Below are positions 11,741-49,875 of a stretch of 64,000 bases of DNA, piece after piece. The stretch is from NCBI GenBank assembly GCA_965637545.1, contig OZ281499.1:16182001-16246000 (forward strand), read 5' to 3'. Under the pieces are notes generated by a model, which was given only the letters and a program-made list of their open reading frames with translations, ran no database searches and had not been told where the DNA came from. The stretch comes from Phallusia mammillata (lineage: Eukaryota). Every line of letters begins with the position of its first letter. Within the stretch, counting starts at the first letter, position 1. Both the position numbers and the translations under genes were made by a program.

Positions 11741-11873
11741 CCAAGCGTGACTATAAGGCTCATTAGCTGAGTCTCATTGCTGCAGCATGCAAGCATAGTA
11801 GAGTATACTTATTTAAAGGCAGTTGTTGAAATATCGTTTGCACAAACTACGAAAGTTACCGTTGTAAACTATT

Positions 11874-13124
11874 ATGAATGATGACTGTGCAACATACAAT
11901 GAAAGCAATTTTGACCGGTTGCCATCTCAAAGCAACATATACGGAGTTACATGTATTGAAGGCCTCCACAATACACACAACACAATTTTGGTGGCTCTGA
12001 CGAAGGGAAAAATATATTCATGCAAATATTTTAAAACAAGCAACTTTCCTGACATACAAGGCATCAGCAAAGAAGTTTCTTTTACATATATTCCTGGAAA
12101 ATGCTGTATTATTTCAATTGACAGTTTTGCTTGTGCTGCAAGAGGTCTTATTATAGGTGTTACATTCCGTAATGAATCAAATGAACATTTTCTTAACATT
12201 TACTGCAATTATGGCGATGATCTGTGCTTTGGTCAGGAATGGATTTTGGACAATGTGGCACAAAACTGTAGAAGCTATGATTTAAGTTTCACCCCATATC
12301 AACTGACACACTGTAAAGTCGAGTGTCCTTATGATAAGCTGCAAAGAACAGTGTTTATTTTGGCAGGTGGAGACAAAAGCTTTCATGTGTATGCGCAAAG
12401 AAAAAATGAGGCTGTATTTTCTGAAGTAAACGCAGAAGAATATTTTACCGAGCTGGGTAAAGTACCTGAAATACCAACTTACCTTGAAATTTGCAATGTG
12501 AACGAGAACAGGAGAATAACAGTCATTGGGTGTGAAAATGGTGCGATTCAGGCATTTTTAGTAAACAGTCATGCTAACACTATTGAAGCGTCTTGGACAA
12601 TTGAACATGATAGCCCAATATCACAAATACAGTTAATGCTGATTCCTTCAAATGCTGGTAATGGCGTTGTAAATTACTTTACAAACTGGGAGGGCAAAGT
12701 GGTAGATGTTCATGTTTGTGTTGTGAGCTCATGTGAATCTACCATGTTGTACCGTAATCTTCCACAGCAAGGGTTTAACAATCCCACTGTGTTTGCTAAC
12801 AGTTCTTCATACGATGTAGTTACATCATGTGCACTAGCTAAAAATCACATCTTTGGACGCTATGAGATACTAATTGGGACATATGGTCAAAAACTGCTCG
12901 CATACAATATGGACAACTTGCCAAATGAGGCATACTCTTCTGTTTCACCTTGTTGGTCACGAGGACTGGCTCATCCAATACTCAAAGTTAAACTGCTTGA
13001 TATGACTGGCGATGGTATAAAGGAGATGATGGTTTTAACAACTAGTGGTGTACATGTTTTTCAATTTAATATAGGAAGCGTCTTAAACAAAATTAAGTCT
13101 AAACTTAACATGAAATCATCGTAA
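11874..13124 (+). CDS. KPTN: kaptin (KICSTOR complex subunit), single-exon CDS, 416 aa
   Basis: Continuous ORF with kaptin motifs: LPSQSNIYG, KEVSFTYIPGKCCIISIDSF, GLIIGVTF, FLNIY, DNVAQNC..LSFTPYQLTH, VFILAGGDKSFHVY, SSSYDVVTSC, EILIGTYGQKLLAY, DMTGDGIKEMMVLTTSGVHVFQ. Confidence 0.93.
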   Translation: MNDDCATYNESNFDRLPSQSNIYGVTCIEGLHNTHNTILVALTKGKIYSCKYFKTSNFPDIQGISKEVSFTYIPGKCCIISIDSFACAARGLIIGVTFRNESNEHFLNIYCNYGDDLCFGQEWILDNVAQNCRSYDLSFTPYQLTHCKVECPYDKLQRTVFILAGGDKSFHVYAQRKNEAVFSEVNAEEYFTELGKVPEIPTYLEICNVNENRRITVIGCENGAIQAFLVNSHANTIEASWTIEHDSPISQIQLMLIPSNAGNGVVNYFTNWEGKVVDVHVCVVSSCESTMLYRNLPQQGFNNPTVFANSSSYDVVTSCALAKNHIFGRYEILIGTYGQKLLAYNMDNLPNEAYSSVSPCWSRGLAHPILKVKLLDMTGDGIKEMMVLTTSGVHVFQFNIGSVLNKIKSKLNMKSS

Positions 13125-17875: not shown

Positions 17876-18400
17876 CAGGGGTCACCAAACTTTTTTCACT
17901 GCGGGCCGGATAAGTTTAATAATAGTTTAATAATAATTCGTGCGGGCCGGATAGTTTACATGCCCTAGCGCCGTCTTTGCGAACTTAGACCGCAAGGCGA
18001 TTTTGATAGGGGCGCCAAGATATGGTCTTTCTGTAATCTCATTAAAATCTGGTGATGCGACTATTAAATTGCATAGTTAGTCTCATCTTACAAGCAACGC
18101 TTGTATATTACGTCACAAGTGACCAAAGAAAGCAATGGTTTGTGCACAATTAACACTTTTAGTCTTGTTTGTGACGTAACAAACTGGCTTTGGGTCAATC
18201 CTGGGTGTTGTAATCCCATAAAACAAGGTAATATCAATTCTACATATCGCGACAGGAAAACTTTCGTAAGAAGTAGATCAATTTTTAAATGTTACAAAGT
18301 TATCAATGCGATTTGACAAACCAAAAAATGTGGTCGCGGGCCGGATGAAATGACCTCGCGGGCCGGATCCGGCCCGCGGGCCGTAGTTTGGTGACCCCTG
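17876..18400 (+). mobile_element. hAT MITE, family B, copy 1
   Basis: TIRs CAGGGGTCACCAAACT / AGTTTGGTGACCCCTG. 8-bp TSD GCTTATGT at 17868-17875 and 18401-18408. Near-identical inverted copy at 20776-21278. Confidence 0.95.
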
Positions 18401-19909
18401 GCTTATGTAATGATTTTGAATTTCACATCCATCGGCAGTGGTCCAACGTAAGGGTAAAAACTGAACTTTGGTTAATTTAATTAGTTGGCATATATTACCT
18501 TCATAAGATGTTTTTCGTTTTCATTTTCACAACCCAGCACGCGCCAAAATAGACGTCATCAATGACCCGTGTCTCGAGAAAAGGCGATCCACATACCTAT
18601 CATTTGATAAATGCAGAATAGAAAAAAACATGGTGAAAATCCCAATGAGGTAATTCTGAAACATGCCAAGTAATGTGGTGCAATATGACCCGGAAACAAA
18701 AAAATCCCTCTTGATGACGCATTGCAGCTAGGCGCTCGTAAACCGTAGCAGGTGGCAACTAGCACCGATAGCAGCAACACCACGTCATTGCTCAACGTCA
18801 GAAATGCCATTAATTACATTAATTAGGCTACCTCATAAATCAAAAAAGCAGTTTATCCTTTGTTTCTTAGAACAGCATAGCTAAATGTTAGGTTATCATA
18901 GGAACTATTCCAGCTAGACGCTTTCAAACTTTGTGGTATTATGGAAAAAAACTGCACGACCAGAAATATGCGAAGTAGCAATGTAAAATCAACTATACAA
19001 AACGCCTGTATTTGTCAATGATGTGAAATCAGGGATGCATGACTTATCATATGTAATAAAGGTTAAATCAGTGGCACAGCCCGAGCTAAATGTTTGGGCA
19101 AAATTTGTGTCTTTCTATACCATTTGGCTTAAAACATTAAAAATATGCGATTTCTAAATTGGACTGATTAGCTAACAACTAATTTAGTTTAAATAAATGT
19201 TCTTGACACCTTTTCAGGGCATTTTAAGATTTTTATAACATCACTGAAGAGTCATGAACTTTTGATGAAAATTCCAACTCTTTCAATTTGAAAAGGACTA
19301 ACATGCGTCAGCCGTTAATACCCGACTTTGCCCATTCCAATTCACTATTATTACTTACCTAAAACATATGTACCTACAGAGTACAGCTTAATATGGGCAA
19401 CAAACTAAACCGTACCAACTCAAGTAACGTACCATACGACGTAAATATGTTTTATTTATCAGCTATAGAATGCGTGCACCGATTTGGAAAGCACGCAACA
19501 GACTCGATTGTGAAGCAATAAACTTCGCTGCTTTGACGCACAAGACGCAACTCCCTTCTTCTTGCAGCTTTTACCTTCTGCGTTTCCTGACCTGAATAAA
19601 AAAACCTTGTTCAACAAGCAGTGCGTGATCGGTTGCAGTTCTTGTGGCACAGGCTACCTGATTACGGCGTTGCAGAGAGTTGTGTGCTTCTGGGGTGATT
19701 CCAAATGTAATCAAGTCTAGTTTTGACCTGGCTTCTTGCATGCACGCAAGTGAGTGCACAACCGAATTTGTATGAATCGTCTTGTAATGTTAAAGTGTGG
19801 TTCTACCTATTTTACAAAGTGTATTTGTTCAAATGTACGCCGTTTAACGAGTTCAAGGTTGTTTAGTGGTAGGTTAACTAGTATAATTTGCAAGGAATAA
19901 GTTGAAGGA

Positions 19910-22900
19910 ATGAAGACAAGCAATGTTTTGTGTCTGGTAACGGCACTTTTCATGAGTGCGAAAGGGTAAGTACTTGGTACCAAATGTGATCAAACTTAGA
20001 TGTGCTATGTGTTGTTTGCAAGTAACAGTTTGTTGAGAATTCACAACACAACCGAAAATATGTATAATACTCGTTCATTATCTCAAAACTATGTCATATA
20101 TGGTCTTAATTGGCTACGACATGTTTCTTAACGAAACGGTAGCATAAATACAGTGAATGAACGCAATGTTTGTCTTTACACATGAGAATACAACAAATCA
20201 ATTTTTGCCAATTATAATGTTTGAAGCGACGTGCTTGTGGTTTGCCGTCATTTGCTAATTGTCTGGCTGTGTGGCTTCTTTGATGTGGTATAGATCGCCC
20301 CTTTGTTGATATTGTGAAAAAATCCCTTGAGATTACAGGTATAGTGCATTGAAACATGAAAGTATCGACTGGTGCCATTGTTGTGTCACTTAAGCTCCAC
20401 ATCAATAAACATGCGGCTGATTTGTGTAGCTCAATGACACGCGCTTGCAGATTTTGCAACAAACTTGTAAGATAAGAACGGATTAAAAGCAAAGCTAGCT
20501 TCGGGCAATGGAGGCGCTCAAAGTCCCCGACTTGTAATTTTTATCCACTACAAGCACAAACAAATCGCCGCAGTTTGATTTTTATATTACACCTTTTTAG
20601 AATAATTTTAAAAATAAACAGAGAATACATTAAATTGCACGTTTTCCAATCTGACAAACACAACCCCAAAACAAGATGTATAACTACAAACACTGTTGAG
20701 ATGCATTATTCATAACAGTAGATATAATCAGCATGTACTCTAAGGGATTATGTTCATTATGATGTTCGTCTTGTACAGGGGTCACCAAACTACGGCCCGC
20801 GTGCCGGATCCGGCCCGCGACCACATTTTTTGGTTTGTCAAATCGCATTGATAACTTTGTAACATTTAAAAATTGATCTACTTCTTACGAAAGTTTTCCT
20901 GTCGCGATATTTAGAATTGATATTACCTTGTTTTATGGGATTACAACACCCAGGATTGACCCAAAGCCAGTTTGTTACGTCACAAACAAGACTAAAAGTG
21001 TTAATTGTGCGCAAACGATTGCTTTCTTTGGTCACTTGTGACGTATTATACAAGCGTTGCTTGTAAGATTAGACTAACTATGCAATTTAATAGTCGCATT
21101 ACCTGATTTTAATGAGATTATAGAAAGACCATATCTTGGCGCCCCTATCAAAATCGCCTTGCGGTCTAAGTTCGCAAAGACGGCGCTAGGGCATGTAAAC
21201 TATCCGGCCCGCACGAATTATTATTAAACTATTATTAAACTTATCCGGCCCGCAGTGAAAAAAGTTTGGTGACCCCTGGTCTTGTAGGTGATCCCAATTC
21301 CTTTCCAGAGCCATTACGACTCTTTCCGTTTCTTAGGGCAAGTTGTTCAACGGTTTCGCAAACTACTGCATTCCTATGAAATTGCCAGTTTCATATGGAG
21401 TTTTGTTAAAGGCGAAATATAGTGTAAACGCTAAATTATTTGATATGCGTACGAACCATAACGTCTCAATAATAAGGGTGGGAGTGATTTTGTCCCATAA
21501 TTTATTTGGAAATGGTTTACGTTGTTGCGACAGGATATTGGTTACAAATATTTTTTTAAATGTACAATTGTAACTACAATTTATTGCAATTGTAGTTGTG
21601 TTTTGTAAAAATGTGTCAAAAAAAGTTATTTCGCTTAATTTTTTTACGACCCGGCATAAACCTTTTAAAAGCCTTTCTCGCTTGTGGACATACGCTTTAA
21701 AATCCAAAGGCATTGGATTAGTAAAACCACCAGCACGCGTCTCCATCTAGTCCAGACATCAAAAAATCACAATAAACCTGATTTAAACCATTAAACGTAA
21801 TTCTGTATTTCATTTCAATTCGTTTCAATTCGAGGTCAAAAATAATCTAATTAGGCTATCTGTCTAAGTCAGCGGTTCTCAACCAGTGGGCCATGGCCCA
21901 CTGGTGGGCCATGGAAGCATTTTGATTGGGCCACAGACCAAAAAAAAATAGAAAGCATTTTTTAAGAATTTTCATTTGTGTCACTACACTCAATTTTACA
22001 AGAATAATGGCTTGGGGAGGAATTGAGAAGGAATGTAAATTAATTTGAATTATTCTATTTATGGTATGAAGTTACTTTGAGTTTCTGCAACCCCGTATGT
22101 TTATGATGTAATAAACTACTTTGTGATTACAATAAAGCCAGATAATAGCAGAATATCAATTGTCCAATTATTCAGTCATAACTGAAAGTGCTTGATTAAA
22201 GAAGGGAAAGTGCTGTTTTATGATTTTTTGCATTAACATATTTTGAGCTTATTATCTGTTTGAAATATGTCCTGTAGTTTTTTTTGTTCTGAACCTACTT
22301 TATAGTTGTTTCTTTCTTTCATAAAAATTTACTGGGCCACAGAATTTTTGTGCAATGAAAGTGGGCCACGAAAGAAAAAAGGTTGAGAACCACTGGTCTA
22401 AGTATTTGCGTTAAAAAAATGAAGTGGAAATTTTCCTGGCGTTAGCACACAACAACTAAAAAAACATGAATTCATATGTAGAAATCAGGTTTTAATGTGT
22501 TTTTTTTGTAGCCTCGATGTAGTTTTTGATCTCCCTGCCAAACTACGTCACGATACGACTCACAACGTCATCCTCACAACGTTCGATGCAGTGGTGGGCA
22601 GACATTTTACTGTCCGAATGTCAGTGCGAACGGATAGTGGCGTGATTTTTAACCAACAAGTAAGTCTGCTCAAATTTAGAGAGCTCTTCTGGCAATTGTC
22701 AGCCCGTTAATTGATTGTTTGGTTGTCTTCAAACTTCTGCGCTAAACATACCGTAGCACCCTGAAAGTGATTCTAGTCAAGTACGTACGTGATACACGTG
22801 GTGTTATAGCATTGATTACCTTAAGAAGCCATTTGCAGGTTAATGTCAAACACCATTCGTTTTGTTCACAGCGAAGTGTTATCGTGAGCAGTTCGGTCGA

Positions 22901-28900: not shown

Positions 28901-31900
28901 GACGCTGCAGCCGCTATCGAAGTATACGTTACCCCGTCACCTAGGCAACGAACAGTAAGCAAAATATATTACAGATTCTAGCAGTAAATGAAAAGCAGTA
29001 GAAATCTAAATAACCTGAAGATTTGTTTTGAAACGGAATTGTTTTGAAACGGAATTGTTTTGAAACGTTGTGCGTTTCGTTGCGAAGTTTGACGCCATTA
29101 CTGCTTGCATAATTGATTTGAATTTACACTAGAAAAGGAAATCACCTAATCGATTCGACCAAATTACAATTCGATTACTAGACAAACAAATTGCTTGAGG
29201 CAGCTTACATTGAATAAAATCTGCTGGTCGAAATCGTTTTCTGCGACTTAAATATTAAAGTTTTAAATATATATCAGCGTTCTTTTTAATACCTCTTTAA
29301 TGGATAGATAAATTGTCATTTGCTTGTTATAGGCAGAAACTATTAAAAAGTCCTTTATTTGCAGATTGTATACACTGTTACGGCAAAGGAGGACGTTTTA
29401 GTGGAGGGCAAGGTCGTCGTGTCTGCTAACGAAAATCAGGCGGTAATTCGTTTGCACGTGACCAGTCAAATGTCGCCACGCTCTCATATTACTGCGTATT
29501 ACGTCACACCGATCAGTTCAGGTTTGTACATTTGTCAGTTGATGGTTTTCTCCAACACTCATTGCGCTCCAGGCCTATTGAAGTTGTAATACTAAATTTA
29601 ACCGCCTTCCGAACCGAATTAAACCGAAATAAATGTCCTGCGCTGGGATTTGAATCCAAGACTGCTGGTCTGCAGCAGGACGGGCTGGTCCCAGTAATAA
29701 GTTTAAGTTTATCTCAGCTATTTTGTGCAATAAAGTGGTTTATGTTTTCCGTCAAAAGATATAACAAAAGCAAACGGCAAACGTTCAAATAGTGTTATCT
29801 TGCCAAAAGTTGCTCATTTTTCACAATACTGCCATGGTTTGTGAATGTAGGTAACGCTTTGCAGCACACATTAAATTTTTATCAGGAGGATCTTACATCA
29901 CTGCTGACTCTGCGGTGCTCCGTGTGGTGGAAACTTGTCAAGGAACAAATCCAGAACTGCAAATCAACTTTCCTGGGGACCTACTTCCTTATCCAGGCCA
30001 AGAGGTAAGAACTCCATTTTTTACATTGAAAGATGATAGTTGGTAGCATGCATAGAGCTGGGTGCATAACTTTTCCTGAAACGTAAAGCTTTTCATAAAT
30101 CTTTAGCAAACAAGTTTCAACGATTTTACTTTCAACATTTTGTAAACATATAATAAGGAGCGTATATATTTTTTGATCAACAAAACAATATAAATTAAAC
30201 GATTGTTTGGAACACTGTTCATACACGATCTGTTCATAAGTTTAATGACGAATATAACGGCCCAAATAGACGTAAAAACGACATGAAAAATTAACCTCGC
30301 GTGCCAACGTTTTTCTAAATAATAGTGGTTCGTGCCAGCAGATATCAGTAAACCAGAGTGTTTTGTGCACGTAAGGCTGAATTTTATAACAATGGCATGA
30401 TAAAAACTATAAACAAGCAGTGTAACGGGTTTAACTGTCACTTCAATATAAACACGCGAATCTGTTGGCGTGCCATGAAAAACCACCTCGCGTGCCAAGG
30501 TTGGCACGCGTGCCAGGGTTGCCGATCTCTGTAATAAAGTATGTCGCTTTTTACGTCTATTTGGGCCGTTATAGTCATGATTAAATTTAAACAATTATAT
30601 TTTGTCTTTTGTTGATATTTAAATGTGACAGAGCTGATCAAATCATTCTAATGGTCCATATACCCAAGCAATATTTTTCTGTTGAGTATTAAAATAAACG
30701 AGCTTACTGCAACCTACCACAAAGAAACCTACTATCTCTTAAGCTTGAAATCGGTGTCAGAGGTCATCCATCGGCTTATGTCGGCCTCACTGGTGTCGAT
30801 GTCGCTGCTCTGTCGCTGAGGAAAGATTTCTTGGGTGAAAACGAGAGTTCTTCGTCCAACTCGAGGTCAAACACCTTTAACATCCTCCGCTCATTTTCCC
30901 TGGAATGCAAATCCCTGTCTATTCCATCACCACAGTATGCGTTTAATGCCGTCGGTAAGTGTTAATTTATGGCTGCCAATAAATAAGTTTTTTTAAGTAA
31001 GTATTTGGAATTCTACGCCAGTCCCATTGAAGGCACCATACCGCATCAGCCGACAACCAAGTATTTACCAGCATATGGCAAGGCGTAGGCTGGAAAAATC
31101 TAGCCTGCGGTGGGACTCGAACCCACTCCTGTTGTGGGTTCGAATACTGTGATTTAAAAATTAGTGGGCCGTGATCGCTGGTTTGCATAGACGATTCAGG
31201 GCTGATCCCAGTTATGAATTTATGTTCATATTATTTGGAATTCTATTTTAGCTCATAGTACATAGTTATCATCAAATTGAGAATACCGTACAGTGCAGTA
31301 ATACAATTACTGCAGGTCGAACTCTTGCCTCCTCCGTCACCAATGGCGTCATCGATGCGAGCAGTTCAACGTGTGGTGATGTCACTGCGAAACGTCGAAG
31401 AAAAAGAGATTTGTTTGGAGATTCTCAGATGATGATACAAAAAGGTAAGAATGGCGTCACAAAGTGTGCTAAGTAACGTCACATTTAAGTAATTGCGATG
31501 ACGTCATTGAAAAAAGTGAATTGTTTTCAGTTTTTTAACGTCATATTAATTTATATCGGCATGTGGCAAAACCCATAACAACCACCTAGTGACGTAGGAG
31601 TAACAATGCAAGACAAAATAATATTTCTATGTCCACAACTTATTTTTGTGTAGCCGAAAGATACTATGGAAGTGTTTACGAATGTTGCGAGATCGGCTCG
31701 TTGGACGTATCAAGCGTTGTGAATATACCGAGCGGCGAAAACTATTGTGAAGAACGCAGGCGGTCCTTGTCTCTGACAGAAGAATGTGAAAAAGCATTTA
31801 TGTCGTGTTGTAAAGAGGCTCAGTGTCGAAGACAAAACACCAATAATGTGGAAAGATGTGTATCTGAGTAAGTCATTTTTATATGTCATTCAAATCTGTA

Positions 31901-34900: not shown

Positions 34901-37900
34901 AGGAACGGAAAAGGTAAGGTTTTATTAATTACAGGTACCATTTTGCATCCGAGTTGTTTTTTACTTGATCAGAGTTTTATTGATTCTCAAATCGAGCGAA
35001 ACCTAAAAAATGTTAGCTTTTTTATTAGCAGATATTTTTTTAAAATGTTGCTTATAACATTTCATACTATGTTATAATACAGCTTTCTATGTTATAACAC
35101 AGAATTCTTTGGATTACTTATTTTTGTTTTAGCTCAAAAGTCAGTAAGTGTACAGCATAACCTATAAAAACGTTACTGCTGTAAAGCAATATATCGTGTC
35201 CAACTTGTGACTTTTTAGGCTACTATGCATTTGCACGGAGTCAGTTCAGCTGCCACTAAAAGTCCGACACCAAACGACGATGATGCAACGATTGCGCCGT
35301 ATTTGTATTCACTGCAATCCGCCTCTGTTAAGTAAGTATTCCTCATAAATACTCCTTATACAAGGGAGAACTAAACGATAAAATTTGGGTGGAACATAGG
35401 GGGTTACAGAAAATAATGTAACTCTTAATTTGAAAACAGGCTTTGCTGGGACCTTCTCAAATTCCATGTAACAAAACTAACTTAGTTATAAAGACTAGAC
35501 TAACTTTGCTTGATTGCTTTAAGCCTACTTTTACAACTCATGCCCATATACTCAAATGCAAATCCGATTTGTAGATTGGAGTATCTTCGACGTAACAACT
35601 TGCTCAATGGTCGCAACGCAAAGATTGACAGTTTAACGACCGAAGCTCAGAATGCTTATGAGGGATTGCTTTCGTTTATGCACGATCGAAACGCCGACAA
35701 ACCATTCACAGGTAAAAAAAATAACAAGTTTATTTTAGCATTTTGTGCCAAAACTTGTGGATTACTGATTGCGTAAATAATTCAAATTTACCCACAAGTT
35801 AGTTGTCAAAAGTTGATCCTCCCAAAGTTTGACCCAGAGGGTACCCATCATGGTAGTAAGTCAAATGGTCTGTATAGTTAGTTGGTAAATATAATATATA
35901 AAATGGAAATATGTGGAAAGACCACCTTTCTAGTTATATTTATTTTTTGCACTTGGTGACCACTAATTAGTTTAACGTTTTTGTCTTTCTTTGTTGGTTA
36001 AAACCAAGCTGAACGGGATTGGAACTCATAACAGAGCACTTGCGCTAACCACTCGACTATCTTGAAAATAATTCCTTCCATATGCTTTGTAATTTACTAA
36101 ACTTGCAGTAAAATTGTTACGTTTTTTTTGCAGCACAGCCCAGACCGCCACTGATTGGATTCTCATTCTCACCAACTCGGGCTTCGAAACCGGATTTATG
36201 GCTTACTAGCGTCACCTTGCGGTTGCTGGTGGAAACAGCGCAGTTAATCAACCCAGACCAAGTAAAATATTTTTGTTAGTAGTTTGTAGCCGAGTTGTAA
36301 GCTCGCCCGAAATTCGAGCCAGCACCCGAAAGTATAAGCCCGAAGCGAATGTGACAGCCCGTTTAAGCCCAGAAGTTTGATTAACATGGCAACTTAACAG
36401 TGTACAAAAGTACAAGTGTACAGAATGTAACAATAGACATTGGATTTAACACGACTCCTAGGGCTGTATGACATTGGGATAAGTCCAACTAGCCACTTAA
36501 CTGGGTAATTTTTTTATAATTACGGACACAAGTCCGTTCGATGAAAAAAGCCCAAACTCAGCTCAAATCCGACCCGAAAATCCTAGCCTGAGTTACAACT
36601 CTAGCTTGTATGACAAACATATCTAGAAGGTAGCTTCAGACGATATAGTTAAAAACAATTATAATTTCAATTTTACGTTTTAATGGAATATGCCAGAAAC
36701 ATCAAACTGTTTTAAACAAGCTACGGTTTGGGATTTAGTATGCATCAGCGATTAATATATTTGCCTGTATTTTGACGGTCTTGTTTATTTCGAAAAATCT
36801 TATCTTTTTCTAGAACATTCTGACTGGTTCTTTGAACTACGTTATGTCACATCAAGTAAAATTGCGTCGCTCTCTCTACTACGCAGGGTCGCCAGTGGCA
36901 ACTTCACGCAGACGAAGATCTGCTTGCAGCGATATCACGTAAAATACAATTGCAAATATTAGCACTGTTGGACTCACATTTTAATTGCATACAACACACA
37001 TTCTAAACTAAAACTATTTTGCCCCAAAAAGAATAGTAAAAAGCAGTTTGAAGCAATGTAATTACCTTTCATAGTTCTTTTTTTAGCACGGCTGTGGTGA
37101 TAACGAATTCTCTGTGTTTTGTGATAATGGACGGTATCATTATCCTTTGCTATGTTTTGATACGCAGGCAAAAATCGGATCGTAAAATTTGCCGACAACG
37201 CAGAAGAATTTCCAAGAGAAATTTGCGGCTTCCAAATTTCAATGAACCTTTGGATCGAAAGGTGCAGGAATGTTAATCTTGTGTATCAAATACTATTTCA
37301 TTTGAGAATTTTTAGTAATTTAGGTTTTCGTAAAAAATGTTTTAGTTGTACTTTACTGTAAAAAACATAATGGACAAAACCCACACTTACAAGTAAACGT
37401 TTAGCAATACAGACACTTGTTGTTTGTGAGCATCTAATGGCCAAGCCAGACCATCATATAATAAAAAAACAAATATGCTTGGATAGTGTTTTTTATTATT
37501 CTGGTTTAAAGCCACAAATACAATTTAGAATAAGAACGTTTTTGAATTTTTATAACCAAAAATTTGCAACGACGCTGTACGAAATAATTCCTAGGTTAAA
37601 ATGCATACATAACTTCGTTTACAATGTGAAAAAACATAGTTTTTTTGTCATACTCGTTATACTGTGCTTATACTGTATTATACTTGTGGCAGTTGTGTTT
37701 AGAGGGGATGTATCTTTACGTTTAAGATTTTGCGACCTTTTAGAGATCTCTTTCGCTTTGCCAAACTTTGTATTGTTTGACAGATTTACAGAACTTCCGT
37801 AATAACATCAGAATTGGACGCGGTTCGTAAAGCGTACACTGATTGGTCAAGCGGAACAAGACAACCAATCAGCACTGACAACGAAATCGACAGGTAATGT

Positions 37901-40900: not shown

Positions 40901-43900
40901 TTGCGCCAACGTCCACCTGGTGTCATTAGCAATCGTAAATAGTAGAGGTGAACTTATCCGAATTGTGCAGGGCACCTAAAAACTTCATTGGGATTCGTCT
41001 TTGGGTGCGTCGTGGGTTCGAACTCCGTGAAAAAATTGAAATGGGCTAAAGGGGCAGGGGAAAAATCGTTTGGAAAATATATCTTTAAACGTACAATCTA
41101 TGTTATTTGCGTAAATGTTTTTACCATATAAGATACTTTTTGCTTGAAACTCTGAACTGATAATCTGGCATTATTGTCCGTAAAAATATTTAAGTTTTGT
41201 TAGGAAAGGGGAATTTTTAATTCAACTATCCTGTTTAGGGTTCGGTATAAAACTATTTAAAAATTAAGCGGTCCAGAAAAAGAGTGAGAACCACGTGTTT
41301 AAATAAACACTTTTATTTACATTCCTGCTAATTATGTCTTTAAACTATTCAGCTACACCCAAAATATTTTTTATATTTGGTTACATTTCATTTAGCTCCT
41401 ACCTTTCATAGGGTCGGAAAATCTGCCTAGAGTATTTTGCCAGACATAAAATGTTTACCAAACGTGGTTTAAATGTTTAAATAATGTCACATATTTTGTA
41501 GCTTGACATGGAATACAACGTTGCAACGCCTAACGTAAGGTCAGCCGGACGACCTTCAACATTTTCATCTGTTGACTCCAGTGATTCTTTTCAGTCTGTG
41601 GTCAGTGTTTGCCCGTACGATCTGTCAGTCGAAGCCCAGAATATTCCACCACTGGCTGAATGTAAGTTAAAAAATCAATGCTGGTTTATTTAAGTTGCTA
41701 GCAGATGCTTCCAGGTTTTACTTGTTAAGGAGATTTATTACTAAAAACTGTTTGGCCTACAGGAGGAATAGTATCAATTAAAGCCTTTTTTCGGAATAGA
41801 TGTAATTCTCAGATCCTAATTTGATAAAACTAAAGCATACACCTGTTTTTGTTATTTATTTCCTCACAGAATAGCTCACAAAATTAGATAGGAATCAAAT
41901 AAAAGTCATTTACAAATCGGTGGTAAAATATTATTATTCTTCAGTATTGGTTTAAGTTAAACTTTTTTTTGCAGTTTCATCTGTGGGGACAGCCAGGTTG
42001 AGATCATCGCAAGCTCGGATAAGTAAAAGTCTTTACGTTCTCGATGTTAACGTGAGTTACATAAACCCAACTACAAGTGAAGAGGATGGGATAAGCACTT
42101 ATGTAGTGGACGTGGGCTTGGGATCCGGTGTCGAACCTTTCCTTGATGACCTTGAAATGGTAAGTTTCGATCAGTTAGTAACAAAGATAAAGATTTATTT
42201 TGCTGATCACATCTTGTATCTTTGCATTTCTTTGTATTGGTTGGTGTAGCCATCTAACGGCACTCCAGTTTGTTGGGAGTAACGTGTTGAAAAGCCCTGT
42301 TTCACCAATTCTGTTGACTGACACAACTAAGCATAAACCACAAGGGAAACTGGGCAAAAACAACCAGCTACACTGATGAGACCTTATAGGTCGAAACAGT
42401 GTGCACTGTCTGCGGCTTACTTATCATTTATTGGTTTAATAATTATTTATGTTGTATTTCTTTGTATTGTTCGCTCGAAGAGTAAAATAGAATGATTAAC
42501 GAATAAATGAAACAAGCATTTATAGCTTGGATAATTGGCAATTTACATAGCACACACGAATAGTAATCACCACAAGCAAAATAGTAATGAATGCGGTACA
42601 ATTAACGAATCACGTGACTGTGGAATGCGCGTACGCGATTACTGCCTGAAGGACAGTACATGAAGCGGAACCACAACACCTCCCCTTCGAAGATCAGAAT
42701 CCCCCCTCAGATTAGAAGTGAAATCGCTCGGGAGGTTTACGCGACCTCTTAGTTCGTCGTGGATTGTCGGGACCGAATGAAGGAGAGCTACGATTCAGTG
42801 GCATGTCTGAATCTGCACCAGCAGTAGGAGCCTGCGGAATACTTTCTTCCGCTCCCGGTTCCAAATCCTCGTCGGACGCGTATCGAGCGCGTAGTTGGTC
42901 GATATGACGTCTCCAATTTGGACCACGTGGAAGAACTTTAACATGAAATGTACGACTTCCACACAGTTTAATAATCGTGGCAGGAACCCAGCGAGCATCC
43001 TCGGTACGTCTTGGACCAAGATACAAAGCGTAACATGGGTCTCCAATGTTGAAAGAAGTGATGTTCACGGGTTTTCGTGTTGCTTGCACTTGCTTACGTT
43101 GCATCAGGTGTGCTGGCGAAGGCAACAGAGTATCTATTTTCGCCCGAATTTGTCTGCCGTTAAGTAGTTCACTTGGTGAAAATCCACTGGCGTTTGGAAT
43201 ACGCCTGTATTGCAGTAGAAACTCTTGCAACGCCTCTTTAGGAGGTTTAGAAGACTTCTTAAGTGCCTTTTTGAAAGTTTGCACTAATCGTTCTGCAGCG
43301 CCATTTGTAGCAGGAAAGTACGGAGCTCCGGTCAGATGAACGATGCCCCTTTGTTTACAGAAGTCTTGAAATTCGGCAGACATAAAAGCTTGCGCATTGT
43401 CGGAAACAATAGTATGAGGGTAACCGAAATGGGCAAAATCTTGTTCCAACAACTCCATAGTTGTTCTCGATGACATAGATTGCGTTTGGTGTATACACGG
43501 GTATTTTGAGTGAGCATCTATCATCACAAGCCAGTTACTTCCCAGAAAGTTAACTGCGTGATCGATGTGTAAGCGACTCCATGGCTTTTCCGGCATCATC
43601 CATGGATGTACAGGTGCCTTTGGCGGAGCGTTTTGATGTTCAGCACAAGTCTGGCACTTGTGGCAAAGAACAGTAATGTCGTCATCGATATTTGGCCAAT
43701 AGACTGCAGTTCTTGCCAGTTGCTTCATTCGTTGAATCCCAAAATGTCCTTGATGAAGGATCTGAAGAACAGCAGAACAAAGTGATTCCGGTATAACCAA
43801 CCGTGAACCATACAGTAGACACCCATAACTGGTGCTCAACGAATCCATAACCTTGCGAAACTTTGCAACTGGATCGTTGTATGCAATAGTAGATGGCCAA

Positions 43901-46900
43901 CCTTCTCTCGTAAAACGCATGACTTTGGATAAGGTTGGATCTTTTCCACTTTCCTTTCGTAGTAACGCTGAATCGGTGGGTTGCACTTGTAAACTAAGAC
44001 TGGTAATTGCACAAACAGTGTCGGTGTCATGTGCACTTTCCTCCCTGTCGAAGTCAGCATCCTCACCAACTGGTAACCGACTGAGTGCATCGGCATTTTG
44101 ATGTTGCGATGTCTTTCGATATTCAATGGCGTATTGAAATTGGCCAAGAAAAAGTGCCCACCTTGCTAAGCGATTTGCAGCTAGAGCAGGCGTAGCTTTA
44201 TTAGGACAGAATAATGCCAGCAGTGGCTTGTGGTCTGTCAGTAGAATAAATTTCCTACCATATATATATTGGTAGAATTTCTTCAGCGCAAAGATTATAG
44301 CGAGAGCCTCTTTCTGAATTTGGCTGTAGTTGCGCTGGCTTTTAGTTAGTGATTTGGATACGTTGGCAATTGGTCTCTCGCTTCCATCTTGATAGCGGTG
44401 AAACAAAACTGCTCCAATTCCAACATTTGATGCATCGCAGGAAATGCCAATAGGTAAAGTAGGGTCAAAATGTGTCAGAACTGTATCAGCTGACAGCAAT
44501 TCTTTCATTTTGCAAAATGCAGCTTGCTCGTTAGGACCCCATTCCCATGCAATGTTTGACCGGGTAAGTCTGTACAGTGGTTCTGCAACGCTGGAAAATT
44601 GTGATGGCAGAAACTTGCTGTAGAATTGAACGGAACCAAGGAAAGAACGTAAGTTTGAGACATCTTTTGGTGATGACATATTAATAACGGCATCCACCTT
44701 AGAACCTTTGGAAATGCCATCTTTTGACAAAATATGACCCAAGTATTCCACTTGAGGTAACGCAAATTTACATTTTTCCAAACGACAGCGTAGACCTTTG
44801 TCGTTAAGCCGTTGAAGAAGTTGGCGAAGATTGTAAACATGCTCTTCAGCCGTTGATCCGCTAACTAAAAGATCATCGAGATAAACTGTAACACCTTGTA
44901 GATCGCTTGTAATCTCTTCCATGATTGATTGAAAATAACCAGGAGCAGATGTTATACCGAATGGTAAAACATTTTGCAGTAGCACCCCACGGTGTGTACT
45001 AATAGCTAGTCGCTTTCGGCTCTCTGGTCCCAACCGGATTTGGTTGTAGGCATCAGCTAAATCAATCTTTGTAAAACCGTAACCACCACGCAACTTGCGC
45101 ATCAAGTCTTCTGGAAGAGGAAGTGGATGGCGGTGTGTAGATAACTGCGGGTTAACTGTTACAGAATAGTCTCCGCAAACTCGTATCTTGGCTTTACTTT
45201 GTGCGGGAAGTGGTGTCTTTCGTATAGGAACTACTGGAGTCCCCCACTCGTTAAATTTTGCCGGAGTCCAAATACCTTTTGCGATGCCAGCATCGTATGC
45301 TTGATTGACGTCATCCTGTAGAGCAAATGGAACAGGCCTTGGCTTGCAGAAAACAGGCTTTACGTCTTTGGTGAATTTTACTTCCAGTGCAAAATCCTTC
45401 AAACACCCCAAATCTTCCTTGAAAAGGTCTGGATATTCCTCGCAAAGCTTTTTGCAAGCACGTTGTAATGATGCGTCTGCTTGGTTGCTGGCGTCAGATA
45501 ATACGTTTACCTTATCGTCGGTACGATAAAGTAACTTGTCCAATGATATGCGCAACGCCTCGATTCCACATCGACCAAGTAAATTTAAATGCGGCATTTC
45601 GGAAACAAACATCGTAAGACTACATGTTGTTGTCCTATGTTTGACTTCAGCTTCGAATGCGCCCAGTATCGGCACCAGATGTTCCGTTGCAGAGTTGAAA
45701 CGCTGATTGGTTTCCTTCAAACTCGGTTTCCCAATTTTCTTCCAGAAATTTACAGAAATAAAATTTCCGCTTGTTGCTGTGTCAATCTCTAACAGACAAG
45801 CTTTACCGTTTATGTTGACGGTTACCTCGAGTTTTGGACTAATATCTGCTTCTGGCTTCATCGAAAGTAGCGAATTTACATGTTGAACTGGCAAAACAGA
45901 CGCTTGTTTCTTTCTGCAAACAATTTCCAAATGGCCTATACGTTTACAGAATTTGCAAGTGGCTCTTTTATAACGGCAATCGGGTGCCAGGTGATCAGGT
46001 TTTCCACATCGGTAACAAGTTGTATTCTTTCTAAACTTGTCAATTGTAGGTGTGGACGTATTGAAACCTTTCTTTGCATCCCGTACCTTGTGTACCGATC
46101 CGCGAGTTCCATACACGGTTTCCTTTGCAACCTTTGCAGCGTCTTCGGTTTGCATTGCAACTTCAATAGCACGTGTAAATGTCAACTCATCGGCGTTGAT
46201 TTTGAAGATTGCCTTTAGCACTGCTTCGTTACCTATAGAGCAAATGAACCTTGTACGCAACGCTTCGTCCAGCGGGTCTTTAATTGAAGGAAAATCGCAC
46301 GTGCCTGCGTCGTGACGAATGCGTGCAGCTAACTCTTGCACTGTTTCCCCGGGCTTGCGTTGCATGTTGCTCCAAAACTTAAAGCGTTCCCGTATAACAA
46401 ACCTTTTCGGATCGAACTGTTCCTTCATGAAACCTTCAATTTCTTTGATTGAAAGATCGTTCACAGTCTTGACTGGAGAGCTTTGACCAGCCAGATTGGA
46501 TAGAAGCTTGTACGTCACAGGGGTTTGATTGGTGAGAAAAACTTGAGCCATCCTCGTTTCTGGTACAGCATGTGCTTGTATAAACGTTGTAAACCTCGAC
46601 CAGTAGTCGTCCCACAGCTCCGATGTTGAGTCGAATGAGGCAAAGCTTGGCGTAGCAACGGAAGGTGCAGCGTTTTGACTGGAACCGGCTTTCTCAACTA
46701 AGGCGAGAATTAGCTTCATTTGTTCATCGTGGCGTCTTTGCTGCTCTTGTAGTTGTTCTTGCATCAGCTTTGCAATTTTCTCCATCTTCGAAAGAACTAT
46801 CTTCGATACCAAACTGCGTACAACGTGTTCAGTTGGTAGATCCCGTCCTCGTCGCCAATTAACTCTGTTGTATTTCTTTGTATTGTTCGCTCGAAGAGTA

Positions 46901-49875
46901 AAATAGAATGATTAACGAATAAATGAAACAAGCATTTATAGCTTGGATAATTGGCAATTTACATAGCACACACGAATAGTAATCACCACAAGCAAAATAG
47001 TAATGAATGCGGTACAATTAACGAATCACGTGACTGTGGAATGCGCGTACGCGATTACTGCCTGAAGGACAGTACATGAAGCGGAACCACAACAATTTAC
47101 ATGTAAATTTTATGTATATTTATATTTTTTAAAGATTATGTATCTTTCGTGCCCAATTTGGGCTTTATTTAAAAACATTCGGTTTGGGTGTTGTGGGCTT
47201 GTCATTTTGGGTTTTGACTAGAGATGTACCGAATATTCGGTTTGCCGAATTTATTCGGCCGAATCGCTCATTTGTGCAAAGATTCGGTTTCGGCCGAATA
47301 ATTTGTTGCGATCCGGCCGAAACCGAATCTTTTACGAACACAAATTTGAAGCGTAAAACGTGTCTTTGCTGCTTATTAAGCTCCACGCAATCTTTCACAA
47401 GCCCAAACATAACGAAAATCGCGTCGATTTTTACCTTTTTCAACACATTGTCGTTTTTCCCACTGTAGTCAAAAAAATTAGTAATTCATTGGCAGGTTGC
47501 CAATCATTCTTGAGGCAATTGTGAACCTCACAGAACTTAAATGAGGACGAAACAGAACTATTCTGCACTAATTGCCTGGTAGATAAACATTTTTTCATGT
47601 CAAACCCGTAGCGTACGACTTCGCGTGACGTCATAAATGATTCGGTTGATTCGGCCGAATTTATTCGGCAAAACCGCCGAATATTCGGTTTCGGCCGAAT
47701 CGAAATTTAGCCGATTCGGTACATCACTAGTTTTGACCCTAATTTTTGACCCGCTTGCAAATCTAACATAGCATTCTAATTCCCATTGGCGGTGATAAAA
47801 ACCTCGCCTAGACTTTATCAATAAATGGCCTTGTTGCATTTATAGGCGTCGCAATGTAGTCAATGCATTCTTCTTTTGTTCGTCAGTTATCAAATTCTGT
47901 TGAGAAATGGATTGATCATTATCGGCTTACCAAACGATCTGTACTGCTCTACATAACTGGTGGAAGAGATATCAAGTTTCGACTGACTTCAACAGATGAT
48001 CAATATTTTCCTGATTTTCCAGTCAGCGTTTATCCTGCAGCACATCCAGGTAGCACAATTTATCCAATAACTGAGTTTCAAGACTTTTGTGCAAATTATA
48101 GTAGAGATTTAAACCAGCAATATATGGCAAGTACAAGATTTTTGGTTATTCACTTTTCCAATTAGCCAATTTTTTTCTTGCGATTATTCGGAGTTTTAGT
48201 TTATTCGAAATGCGATTAACCAGAATAGTTCGTATTTCACATTAAACAGCTTTGAAACCCTTTTTTGTTTAGAACAACGTTGTACGACTTTCTACCATCT
48301 CCGTGAATCGTCCCTTAGTCTTTTGTGCTCCACCGATGACGTCACAAGTACGTCATCCAGTGACGTGTGCGCATGTGCAGCAGGGAGCGCGTGTCCCAAG
48401 TTCCTGAGCAAGAAAGACTCGGCTGCACTGAGTGGAAACAACAGAAAGATTGCCACATGTGATGCCGCGACTGTTTATGGTAGATTTCTTAATCGTTATT
48501 TTTAAATAATTTATGTAACTTTTAATTTAACAATATAAAGACTTTCACTCGAAAGATATTTTACAGGCAAATTTATAAGAACCCCCAATATAGCCATTTT
48601 TGACATTACTTACAACCGGGGTTGGCATGTTGTTTAAATAAAGTTACACAACGTCTTAAATATTTTGATTTTCTCTATTTGGGCCTGCGTCCTTATTTGT
48701 CATAGTAACAACAACTAGGCATTTTATTATTTTACCGTGGATTATAAATGCCCGCTCTCATTCTGAACACAAAGACTTTTTTTAGCTACATTAACACAGT
48801 AAAGTAGCTAGTTTAGATGACAAGGCCAGTTTTAAGTTGAGTAATTATTTTATTTATTGTATCAACTCTCCGAAAAATCCGTTTGATAGAAAAATCACAA
48901 TACGTTAGAAGAATCACCCGTCATCATTAGGTTTAGGTTAGGTCGAATTATGATCATAACCAGTCAGCCAACTGTCTTTAAAATGCGATATATATATATA
49001 TTAAATATGTTTCGGAATTAATATATTAGATCGATGGCAGTCCTGCTTATAGCCAAAAAACTACTTCTAGTTTACACACAAAGTACATTTGGATACTAAC
49101 TACTCGCAAAGGTGAAACAATGCGTAACAACCTCTAGCACGTTTTGCATACACTACTAAATTTAAATCTTAAAACTGAAAAAAACATGCTTTTGTCCACA
49201 GCGTACAGAATAAGAGTGGTAACCGAACCAGTTGACGAGGGAAAATGGATTAAGTTTGATGGCAATATTCGCAACAACTTTAAAAGCACCGGAGTTACTG
49301 ACATCAGAATTAATGAAAACCACACGTTTTGGGTAAAAGGCGAATGTGACGAAGGTACAAAATTCAGGCGGAACCGTGAATATCACGTGACTGGGAAGAC
49401 GGTGGTACAGGGCACTGACGGGTGAGTAAATGGATTCGTACGTTAACGTGTATGAATATAGCTGGATTGGTTGTAGGGTAAGCGTTTTCAGGGTGTATAT
49501 CATGAAACACCACATTATTTGCCGTAGTTTATTGTGGTAAAACTGATTTTTTTAACTTTGAAACACTATATATGGATCTGTTTATAAGTTTAATGATAAA
49601 ATTAACGGCCCAAATAGACGTAAAAAAGCGACATGCTTTTTTTTTAAACGTTTCGGCAAATGCTCATGCCATCATTGAATTGTTTATTATTTTTTGATTT
49701 GTGAATTCATGCTTTGGCTAATAAAAATTATTATGGCAGGGTCTACAAACACCTGCTTGATCATGAAGCCAGGATCGAATGGTGGCCAAAGGACAGGGAT
49801 TGTGGAAGTTGTCCAGAACCGAAACGATCTATTTGGAACTCTTTGGATTTTTACACACATATTATGCCATGTTAA
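19910..49875 (+). CDS. C3: complement C3/C4/C5-family protein lacking the thioester (C5-like features), 38 exons, 1898 aa
   Basis: All junctions GT-AG and in phase, total 5697 nt. Exons: 19910-19965, 22512-22659, 22839-23118, 23793-23863, 24726-24868, 25741-25881, 26284-26437, 26887-27081, 27411-27524, 28285-28425, 28844-28954, 29365-29521, 29886-30004, 30744-30954, 31316-31444, 31654-31867, 32095-32229, 33104-33206, 33596-33745, 34051-34212, 34680-34913, 35219-35331, 35575-35711, 36134-36261, 36814-36938, 37087-37261, 37784-37893, 38261-38348, 38741-38902, 39634-39757, 40130-40278, 40656-40802, 41502-41661, 41975-42159, 47887-48049, 48273-48479, 49202-49421, 49740-49875. Landmarks: signal peptide MKTSNVLCLVTALFMSAKG, IFIQTDRTVYRPGDTV, FFVQDYTLPTFDV, YYKPGLTF, VGLTGVDVA, beta/alpha KRRRKR, anaphylatoxin CC-C-C-CC, RRDFDETW, LPHSITSW, WLTSVTLRL, VEATAYQL, CTTFYH, anchor Cys cluster, C345C ending WWPKDRDCGSC...MPC*. 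The symbol denotes the family; orthology to C3 versus C5 is unresolved. Confidence 0.9.
20776..21278 (-). mobile_element. hAT MITE, family B, copy 2 (intron 1 of the C3-like gene)
   Basis: Reverse complement of 17876-18400 with a few substitutions and a 22-bp deletion between short CGCGGGCCGGAT repeats. 8-bp TSD GTCTTGTA at 20768-20775 and 21279-21286. Confidence 0.95.
21870..22395. mobile_element. hAT (Buster/Charlie-like) MITE
   Basis: TIRs CAGCGGTTCTCAACC / GGTTGAGAACCACTG, GGGCCA(C/T) subterminal motifs. 8-bp TSD GTCTAAGT at 21862-21869 and 22396-22403. Confidence 0.92.
23131..23471. mobile_element. hAT (Buster/Charlie-like) MITE
   Basis: TIRs CAGTGGTTCCCAACC / GGTTGGGAACCACTG. 8-bp TSD GCTTAGTC at 23123-23130 and 23472-23479. 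Inserted 12 bp after the exon-3 donor. Confidence 0.92.
24396..24575 (+). mobile_element. short hAT MITE, family A copy
   Basis: CAGTGGTGGGATTCA...TGAATCTCACCACTG, homologous to 3583-3741. No matching TSD visible. Confidence 0.8.
27952..28042 (+). mobile_element. truncated 3' end of the TAGAGATG/TAGTGATG-TIR MITE family
   Basis: Similar to 47640-47729 (ATTCGGTTGATTCGG...TTATTCGGCAAAAC...GCATCACTA). Confidence 0.6.
29025..29067. repeat. 16-bp tandem repeat (~2.7 copies)
   Basis: GTTTTGAAACGGAATT repeated at 29025, 29041 and 29057. Confidence 0.85.
31016..31231. mobile_element. tRNA-derived SINE-like element with its 5' part inverted
   Basis: Flanked by 14-bp direct repeats TATTTGGAATTCTA (31002-31015, 31232-31245). 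The first half is the reverse complement of 32300-32405 and the second half is colinear with 32410-32492. Confidence 0.7.
32270..32492 (+). mobile_element. tRNA-derived SINE-like element
   Basis: Pol III B-box GGTTCGAATCC at ~32306, followed by a body and tail shared with 31016-31231. Confidence 0.65.
34421..34506. repeat. 32-bp tandem repeat (~2.7 copies)
   Basis: GGTAATTAAAACTTTAAAATGGCCAAACTACT at 34421, 34453 and (partial) 34485. Confidence 0.9.
38979..39160 (+). mobile_element. short hAT MITE, family A copy
   Basis: CAGTGGTGAGATTCAGCCGGTT...TGAATCCCACCTCTG, homologous to 3583-3741 and 24396-24575. Confidence 0.8.
42366..42417 (+). ncRNA. minimal type I hammerhead ribozyme (Penelope-like-element style)
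   Basis: Stem I 5' AGCTACA; core CTGATGA (42373-79); stem II GACC-ttata-GGTC; GAAA (42393-96); stem III CAGTG-tg-CACTG; GUC cleavage triplet ending at C42410; stem I 3' TGCGGCT (5 Watson-Crick pairs, 1 G-U, 1 mismatch). Confidence 0.8.
42450..42678 (-). repeat. 3' LTR of the Gypsy element
   Basis: TGTTGTATTTC...CCACAACA. On the minus strand it is preceded by the PPT GAAGGGGAGG (42679-42688). Confidence 0.95.
42712..46812 (-). CDS. Gypsy gag-pol polyprotein (Gag with 2 CCHC knuckles, protease, RT, RNase H, integrase), 1366 aa
   Basis: CYRCGKPDHLAPDC and CKFCKRIGHLEIVC knuckles; protease LEIDTAT; RT KIDLADAY...LPFG...YLDDLLV; RNase H CDASNVGIGAVL; integrase HQGHFG..CHKCQTC, HIDHA, VSDNA, NGAAER. 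The order PR-RT-RH-IN is Ty3/Gypsy. No stops. Confidence 0.97.
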   Translation of the reverse strand: MVSKIVLSKMEKIAKLMQEQLQEQQRRHDEQMKLILALVEKAGSSQNAAPSVATPSFASFDSTSELWDDYWSRFTTFIQAHAVPETRMAQVFLTNQTPVTYKLLSNLAGQSSPVKTVNDLSIKEIEGFMKEQFDPKRFVIRERFKFWSNMQRKPGETVQELAARIRHDAGTCDFPSIKDPLDEALRTRFICSIGNEAVLKAIFKINADELTFTRAIEVAMQTEDAAKVAKETVYGTRGSVHKVRDAKKGFNTSTPTIDKFRKNTTCYRCGKPDHLAPDCRYKRATCKFCKRIGHLEIVCRKKQASVLPVQHVNSLLSMKPEADISPKLEVTVNINGKACLLEIDTATSGNFISVNFWKKIGKPSLKETNQRFNSATEHLVPILGAFEAEVKHRTTTCSLTMFVSEMPHLNLLGRCGIEALRISLDKLLYRTDDKVNVLSDASNQADASLQRACKKLCEEYPDLFKEDLGCLKDFALEVKFTKDVKPVFCKPRPVPFALQDDVNQAYDAGIAKGIWTPAKFNEWGTPVVPIRKTPLPAQSKAKIRVCGDYSVTVNPQLSTHRHPLPLPEDLMRKLRGGYGFTKIDLADAYNQIRLGPESRKRLAISTHRGVLLQNVLPFGITSAPGYFQSIMEEITSDLQGVTVYLDDLLVSGSTAEEHVYNLRQLLQRLNDKGLRCRLEKCKFALPQVEYLGHILSKDGISKGSKVDAVINMSSPKDVSNLRSFLGSVQFYSKFLPSQFSSVAEPLYRLTRSNIAWEWGPNEQAAFCKMKELLSADTVLTHFDPTLPIGISCDASNVGIGAVLFHRYQDGSERPIANVSKSLTKSQRNYSQIQKEALAIIFALKKFYQYIYGRKFILLTDHKPLLALFCPNKATPALAANRLARWALFLGQFQYAIEYRKTSQHQNADALSRLPVGEDADFDREESAHDTDTVCAITSLSLQVQPTDSALLRKESGKDPTLSKVMRFTREGWPSTIAYNDPVAKFRKVMDSLSTSYGCLLYGSRLVIPESLCSAVLQILHQGHFGIQRMKQLARTAVYWPNIDDDITVLCHKCQTCAEHQNAPPKAPVHPWMMPEKPWSRLHIDHAVNFLGSNWLVMIDAHSKYPCIHQTQSMSSRTTMELLEQDFAHFGYPHTIVSDNAQAFMSAEFQDFCKQRGIVHLTGAPYFPATNGAAERLVQTFKKALKKSSKPPKEALQEFLLQYRRIPNASGFSPSELLNGRQIRAKIDTLLPSPAHLMQRKQVQATRKPVNITSFNIGDPCYALYLGPRRTEDARWVPATIIKLCGSRTFHVKVLPRGPNWRRHIDQLRARYASDEDLEPGAEESIPQAPTAGADSDMPLNRSSPSFGPDNPRRTKRSRKPPERFHF
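46840..46857 (-). promoter_or_regulatory. primer-binding site complementary to the tRNA-Ser(GCU) 3' end
   Basis: Minus strand TGGCGACGAGGACGGGAT. The plus strand ATCCCGTCCTCGTCGCCA matches the known ...ATCCC(A/G)TCCTCGTCG-CCA end of animal tRNA-Ser(GCU). Confidence 0.8.
46866..47094 (-). repeat. 5' LTR of the Gypsy element
   Basis: Identical by eye to 42450-42678. Confidence 0.95.
47219..47729. mobile_element. hAT (Ac-type TSD) MITE with (ATT)CGG/CCGAAT subterminal repeats
   Basis: TIRs TAGAGATGTACCGAAT / ATTCGGTACATCACTA. 8-bp TSD GTTTTGAC at 47211-47218 and 47730-47737. Confidence 0.92.

Follow-up and report, generated by a model that had tools for sequence, protein, structure and literature searches.

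A hammerhead motif in a predicted intron of Phallusia mammillata, very probably an old copy of a high-copy 282-nt retrozyme with a Penelope-type insertion footprint

A hammerhead motif in a complement-like gene

The window, by which we mean the whole 64-kb stretch of Phallusia mammillata DNA that was analysed, contains a complement-like gene whose predicted upstream exon (41975..42159, plus strand) is followed by a GT donor at 42160, and in which a downstream exon, also predicted and continuing the same frame, starts at 47887, just behind an AG acceptor, with 47887..47985 (plus strand) as its first part. On these predictions, which were made from sequence only, the intron spans 42160-47886 and contains both a hammerhead motif and a Gypsy element. 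The host gene gave Pfam matches to A2M and NTR/C345C, the NTR match scoring 20.7 bits, just below the cut-off of 21.9. A basic processing site at approximately 31400 and an anaphylatoxin-like cysteine pattern at 31593-31868 were also observed in this gene. The pattern GC[GA]EQ, which we take to be the thioester motif of C3-type proteins and which was expected here at 35180-35260, was absent from all plus-strand frames of the window, and the frame at 35180-35260 reads differently; the host gene may be C3/C5-like but thioester-less.

The motif is a type I hammerhead ribozyme at 42366..42417 (plus strand), in which the 5΄ strand of helix I (42366-42372), the core with helices II and III (42373-42410) and the 3΄ strand of helix I (42411-42417) follow one another, and a conserved core and the three helices are arranged around an NUH cut site. 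We read the CUGAUGA box at 42373-42379 (with G5 at 42375), the GAAA at 42393-42396 and the GUC at 42408-42410, which places the predicted cut between 42410 and 42411. Helix II (42380-42383 with 42389-42392) has 4 bp and a 5-nt loop; the complete core, the 4-bp stem II and the GUC are all found where the earlier note had put them. Helix III (42396-42400 with 42405-42409) has five pairs, including A15.1-U16.1, and a 4-nt loop. The pairing of the near-palindromic stem III described in that note is present, although the fifth pair that it had drawn on the C/G side would leave a 2-nt loop, where one of 4 nt is realistic. Helix I has 7 bp with one A-C mismatch, as had been seen before, together with a U-G wobble that had gone unmentioned; relative to the repeat family described below, it carries two substitutions, at 42370 and 42414. 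The motif also lies in sense orientation in the predicted intron, between the GT donor and the in-frame AG acceptor, in agreement with the previous description.

A search of the window with Rfam models, which had been proposed as a check, returned zero matches at the gathering threshold; the best match at E values of up to 10 was a weak one, to Hammerhead_3 (18.7 bits, E = 0.4). The hammerhead core pattern matched 873 times genome-wide, compared with 2 matches for the reversed control pattern, and because of this difference the motif is considered real and not a product of chance.

A young Ty3/Gypsy LTR retrotransposon (42450..47094, minus strand) starts 32 nt from the motif end at 42417, the distance reported earlier. 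Its LTRs (42450-42678 and 46866-47094) are 229 bp each with 0 differences, its target duplication is 5 bp (42445-42449 and 47095-47099), and its gag-pol frame (42712-46911, 1399 aa) is antisense in the predicted intron. The element looks intact, and at least 17 further LTR-end matches were found in the genome. Behind it, in the same intron, lies a second high-copy inverted-repeat element, which is MITE-like (47206-47742).

The 282-nt repeat family and its copy in the window

A DNA search with 42170-42520 matched many loci over 42234-42440 at 73-79% identity, and a short distance upstream, on the other strand, the matched loci frequently carried a further hammerhead. The repeat unit is 282 nt long, has 49.6% GC, is non-coding and contains one hammerhead. 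Direct tandems of the unit are present (e.g. loci L033 and L034), with approximately 4 units at most in the sampled arrays, and young copies are mutually 94-100% identical. The summed contig depth over the hammerhead was approximately 4,000-5,000 times that of the unique flank, a value that is not a copy number. At L034, a two-hammerhead retrozyme copy (3008-3436 of that locus) was also observed within the pol region of another Gypsy element.

Given the 282-nt tandem unit with one hammerhead each and its non-coding nature, we classed the family as a non-LTR retrozyme, dispersed and high-copy, and it fits the definition given in PMC7229834. The family resembles the metazoan non-LTR retrozymes described there and in bioRxiv 10.64898/2026.07.22.740005 in having non-coding units in tandem, each with a single type I hammerhead and a length (here 282) that falls in the range of 150-450 bp, a GC content below 50%, target duplications longer than 4 bp, no LTR, and numerous solo or intronic copies. 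It also coexists, as they do, with autonomous Penelope-like elements (PLEs) bearing minimal hammerheads; many frames with reverse transcriptase (RT) and GIY-YIG domains were found in this genome, some of them open over approximately 800-950 aa. The 873 core matches bear out the earlier suggestion of a repeat from the retrozyme and PLE world with many genomic copies. According to the same bioRxiv report, approximately 44% of the retrozyme copies of Xenopus tropicalis overlap introns, and 1 of 9 dimers tested was cleaved in vitro.

The present family differs from these retrozymes in its helix III, which has five pairs compared with the usual 1-2 bp (PMC4209133), and in its sampled arrays, which are short and as a rule arranged head to head and have a PLE-type tail; the main text of PMC7229834 lacks the word 'inverted'. 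The window copy, unlike metazoan retrozyme units, is a sub-monomer fragment, and with one hammerhead and a partial unit it does not qualify as an active element. Two other identities were rejected: a viroid-like RNA with hammerheads in both polarities, since there is one hammerhead per unit and the spacing of inverted pairs ranges from approximately 35 to approximately 365 bp, and a MITE, since arm lengths are variable and direct tandems exist.

In the window, the sense arm of the insertion (42363..42449, plus strand) comprises approximately 10 nt 5΄ of the core, the ribozyme and then the long-form tail. The inverted, antisense arm (42234..42353, minus strand) corresponds to the middle of the 282-nt unit and lacks its own hammerhead end; its closest relatives, which are 78-88% identical, form an old subfamily, from whose majority the arm differs at 18 of 118 positions. 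The tail of the sense arm contains a 4-nt duplication that is also present in approximately 5 of 27 old arms. The Gypsy element sits at the 3΄ end of this tail, and a by-eye comparison with family tails weakly suggests that the AT-rich bases past it (47095..47103, plus strand) are probably the last bases of the retrozyme tail. The Gypsy element is younger than the retrozyme copy whose tail end it occupies; a link between the two was rejected, since the identical LTRs mark a young element and, in other LTR copies, the match to the query was confined to its LTR part.

The left insertion junction was found in contigs of all four DNA runs searched (4/4, from three studies; one run may be the assembly source), and since these contigs reach the left arm, the insertion is not confined to a single assembly. 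One contig of 785 letters covers 41964-42283 for 320 letters, and its remaining 465 letters may belong to an allele that departs from the window sequence at a point within the antisense arm.

Insertion footprint and mobilisation of the family

We examined insertion footprints in 39 loci, which were reduced to 35 distinct loci by removal of 4 flank duplicates; 10 of these had been picked from close core pairs and are therefore biased to inversion, while 25 had been chosen by similarity. Both orientations, arranged head-to-head, were present in 28 of the 35 distinct loci and in 19 of the 25 similarity-chosen ones. Target duplications of 9-16 bp, mostly 12-13 bp, were found in 26/35 loci, three of which share flanks and probably represent one insertion. 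Ends were mapped for 23 duplication-bounded insertions, 4 of which had one unmeasured end. In 15 of the 19 measurable insertions, the two ends lay at different distances past the cleavage site, a short one at +3 to +11 and a long one at +32 to +39; at least two of the 4 that misfit this short/long pattern did so through the pattern matching the wrong place in a truncated arm. In young insertions (L035-L080), the short end coincides with the 3΄ terminus of helix I (+3 to +11), a position which suggests that one of the start sites of reverse transcription is marked by the ribozyme fold.

A similar picture was obtained for the autonomous PLEs of this genome: of 7 inverted insertions, 4 had 12-17 bp duplications and ends offset by 31-35 nt, and of the remaining ones, one had a 12 bp duplication with a 43 nt offset, one was cut by the locus edge and one, Neptune-like, was without offset. 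Partial tandems, an inverted 5΄-truncated copy and a 30-40 bp tail are given as hallmarks of PLEs in PMC8557442 and PMC3846280, and PMC11167929 attributes the tail to RT starts at two internal sites and shows that both target strands are cleaved and extended. The inverted truncated copy, the 30-40 bp tail and the target duplication are all present in the retrozyme at the family level, and its young insertions carry a PLE-type footprint. Like the Penelope/Poseidon EN+ PLEs (PMC3846280, PMC8557442, PMC11167929), it shows partial tandems, a 5΄-truncated copy in inverted orientation, a one-sided tail of 30-40 bp and AT-rich duplicated targets. Unlike them, it has neither an RT nor a GIY-YIG frame, does not match the sampled pseudo-LTRs (pLTRs) in sequence, and keeps a full helix III in its hammerhead in place of the minimal form. 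Inversion and long tail are also seen in the window copy, but no clear target duplication (best match 9 nt).

As this footprint is common to the retrozyme and the resident PLEs, we infer that the family is mobilised by a resident Penelope/Poseidon-type enzyme. Comparison of the tail with six PLE ends did not single out a partner element, no similarity being significant (equally high scores were reached by 55-881 of 1000 shuffles). A partnership between retrozymes and PLEs had been proposed previously from co-occurrence and pLTR similarity (PMC7229834; bioRxiv 10.64898/2026.07.22.740005). At the level of titles and the beginnings of abstracts, no report of a two-ended footprint for a retrozyme was found, and we make no claim that it is unreported. 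The family is modestly useful in this respect, in that a retrozyme without a link to the sampled pLTRs shares the two-ended footprint with Penelope/Poseidon-type elements and has many near-identical young copies; the partnership thereby becomes testable in vitro with the assay of PMC11167929.

These observations are consistent with the following history. While the family is live, transcripts of its tandem units would be cleaved by their hammerheads into 282-nt monomers, which, by analogy with other animal retrozymes, might be circularised. A reverse transcriptase-endonuclease of the Penelope/Poseidon type would copy the monomers at both ends of an AT-rich staggered cut, with copying starting at two internal sites, approximately 7 and approximately 35 nt past the cleavage site, and the outcome would be inverted arms, a one-sided tail and a 12-13 bp duplication. 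The window copy would have been inserted in the predicted intron of the complement-like gene and would then have decayed through the loss of the hammerhead end of its inverted arm and the two substitutions in helix I, with the Gypsy insertion following later. We consider it very probable that the motif belongs to the sense arm of a head-to-head insertion of the high-copy 282-nt hammerhead repeat, an old and truncated copy that was likely inserted by Penelope-type machinery and is predicted to be catalytically crippled. Such a copy is most likely a neutral passenger, and in itself it matters little.

Decay, cleavage capacity and alternative readings

We compared the decay of the core with that of the rest of the unit. 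In old copies, the agreement was 89.3% in the core and 90.0% in the middle, i.e. approximately 10% divergence in both. A complete hammerhead was kept in only 3 of the 27 old arms, compared with 55 of the 93 others, of which 61 had 0 core differences. Pair-breaking changes outnumbered double-sided ones, with three double-sided cells in the 27 old arms and one in the 93 others (counts that leave out arms with more than 8 core differences or indels); the covariation among genomic copies that the earlier note had raised as a check is essentially absent. Together, the equal decay of core and middle, the small number of complete old hammerheads and the scarcity of double-sided changes indicate that the genomic copies decay neutrally.

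The remaining oddity against the passenger reading is the intact core of the window copy, with 0 differences in 38 nt compared with 18/118 in its own antisense arm (Fisher test, P = 0.007, or P = 0.038 when helix I is counted in). All 27 old arms have at least 2 core differences and, at the decay rate of the subfamily, a perfect core is expected by chance in 1.4% of old copies. The window copy was picked for its intact core, and the P values therefore overstate the case. Because only an intact core would be noticeable, and because helix I is not preserved, we read the intact 38-nt core as ascertainment or gene conversion, which leaves a very small share of the probability to use by the host. 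Overwriting of the sense arm by gene conversion from a young copy, or a second, younger insertion, would explain the clean core, and it is favoured by the identity of the core to that of the young family, which offers hundreds of donors. However, the same core sequence occurs in the old and young subfamilies, and the tail is itself decayed and shares its 4-nt duplication with some old arms. Such an event is unlikely, though it is the strongest of the alternatives, and it would alter only the history of the copy and is compatible with its identity as an old retrozyme insertion.

The earlier note had called the motif a minimal hammerhead and had suggested a remnant of a PLE terminal repeat. The minimal PLE hammerhead is described in PMC4209133 as having no helix III, a short helix I, an enlarged helix II and an unpaired base 5΄ of helix II. 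Correspondingly, the motifs near the 3΄ ends of the sampled PLEs lack helix III, have only a short palindrome behind the GAAA, and carry a bulged base in front of helix II. The window motif, with a five-pair helix III, a 7-bp helix I and no bulge, differs from these and is not minimal. Our PLE sample, an incomplete census obtained with two protein queries and one Pfam family, consisted of 90 loci and 7 earlier ones (97 in total). No pLTR in this incomplete sample matched the 282-nt unit, nor was any terminal-repeat sequence found to be shared between the unit and the autonomous PLEs of the 97 loci, and the suggested terminal-repeat remnant is accordingly not supported for any sampled PLE. By blastn, the unit matched 2 of the 90 PLE loci, in one as a decayed copy approximately 1.2 kb past the PLE's own hammerhead (L143) and in the other as a weak fragment (L172); at a further locus (L046), a separate retrozyme copy lies 1 kb past the hammerhead of its PLE. 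When 110 loci were searched by tblastn with five pieces of PLE protein, matches were confined to the seven PLE loci and one locus with a Gypsy LTR (L026), and no retrozyme locus gave a PLE protein match. Many PLE families were observed in the genome (L137-L200), with long open frames and each with its own minimal hammerhead, and some of these PLEs form tandem arrays of three to five copies.

It could still be argued that the repeat is the solo pLTR of an unsampled autonomous PLE family, for example an EN-minus, Hydra or long Terminon-like one. The PLE-like insertion footprint would agree with this, and 24 of 57 Xenopus retrozyme families resemble known repeats, nearly all of them PLE termini (bioRxiv 10.64898/2026.07.22.740005). 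However, the 282-nt unit has no link to a PLE frame among the PLE loci sampled with the above queries, and we regard this origin as improbable compared with that of a retrozyme.

The suggestion that the ribozyme could cut the pre-mRNA became doubtful when the old retrozyme copy was folded. At minimum energy, 42355-42425 folds into a structure other than the hammerhead (z = -1.8), and in the fold model the winning alternative helix pairs the 5΄ flank with helix III. The helix I duplex has -3.4 kcal/mol in the window copy, compared with -10.1 kcal/mol for the perfect 7 bp of the family. In five matched contexts, the penalty for adopting the hammerhead fold was 7.2-11.1 kcal/mol for the window copy and 1.0-2.0 kcal/mol for a young copy, and the modelled probability of the hammerhead fold was 9e-6 to 2e-8 compared with 0.04-0.19; these figures are from nearest-neighbour models that ignore tertiary contacts and Mg2+. 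In its context, the window copy is thus predicted by the model not to fold into the active three-way junction. In addition, the family sequence 5΄ of helix I is gone from this copy, and no second family hammerhead that could form a cis-dimer is present elsewhere in the 64-kb window. In a complete inverted copy (L005), all ribozyme stem probabilities are 0, the ribozyme being buried in a long hairpin. According to earlier in vivo work cited in PMC2995048, introns cut by a hammerhead were still removed efficiently, and splicing was aborted by a faster ribozyme only. The models predict that the window hammerhead is too weakened to cut, and cutting of the complement pre-mRNA by it is unlikely.

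A ribozyme retained by the host in the intron, with its core under selection, might nevertheless cut the pre-mRNA slowly, alone or dimerised with family RNA via the self-complementary helix III, and thereby tune the output of the 3΄ exons. The 38/38 intact core within an otherwise old copy, its sense orientation and the occurrence of the left junction in all four DNA runs (three studies; one possibly the source) would be in keeping with this. The same holds for the loss of the inverted hammerhead, which frees the motif from the long hairpin burying the ribozyme in complete inverted copies, and for the helix III segment, whose self-duplex is modelled at -21 kcal/mol. We consider such retention very unlikely, however, as helix I, which is required for catalysis, has two weakening changes, the modelled fold probability is minute, chance alone would leave 1.4% of old copies with a perfect core, and hammerhead-cut introns were still spliced efficiently in the work cited above. 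Ribozymes conserved in introns, for example the hammerheads of amniotes (PMC7229834) and the CPEB3 ribozyme (PMC10919898), are likewise on the sense strand within an intron, but they are described as few-copy and highly conserved, whereas the window motif is one of at least 873 repeat copies and has a damaged helix I. Least probable of all is a domesticated switch, in which the intact core, the weakened helix I and the lost blocking inverted copy would allow cutting of the pre-mRNA only when abundant family RNA pairs via the palindromic helix III; if true, transposon expression would tune the C345C-encoding 3΄ end of an immune gene.

Two further features were observed elsewhere in the window. 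A 471-nt inverted repeat with 98% identity and 2.4 kb between its arms (17876-21278) is probably a young DNA transposon, and an intronless plus-strand frame of 418 aa (11868-13121) gave weak matches to BBS7/BBS2 beta-propellers.
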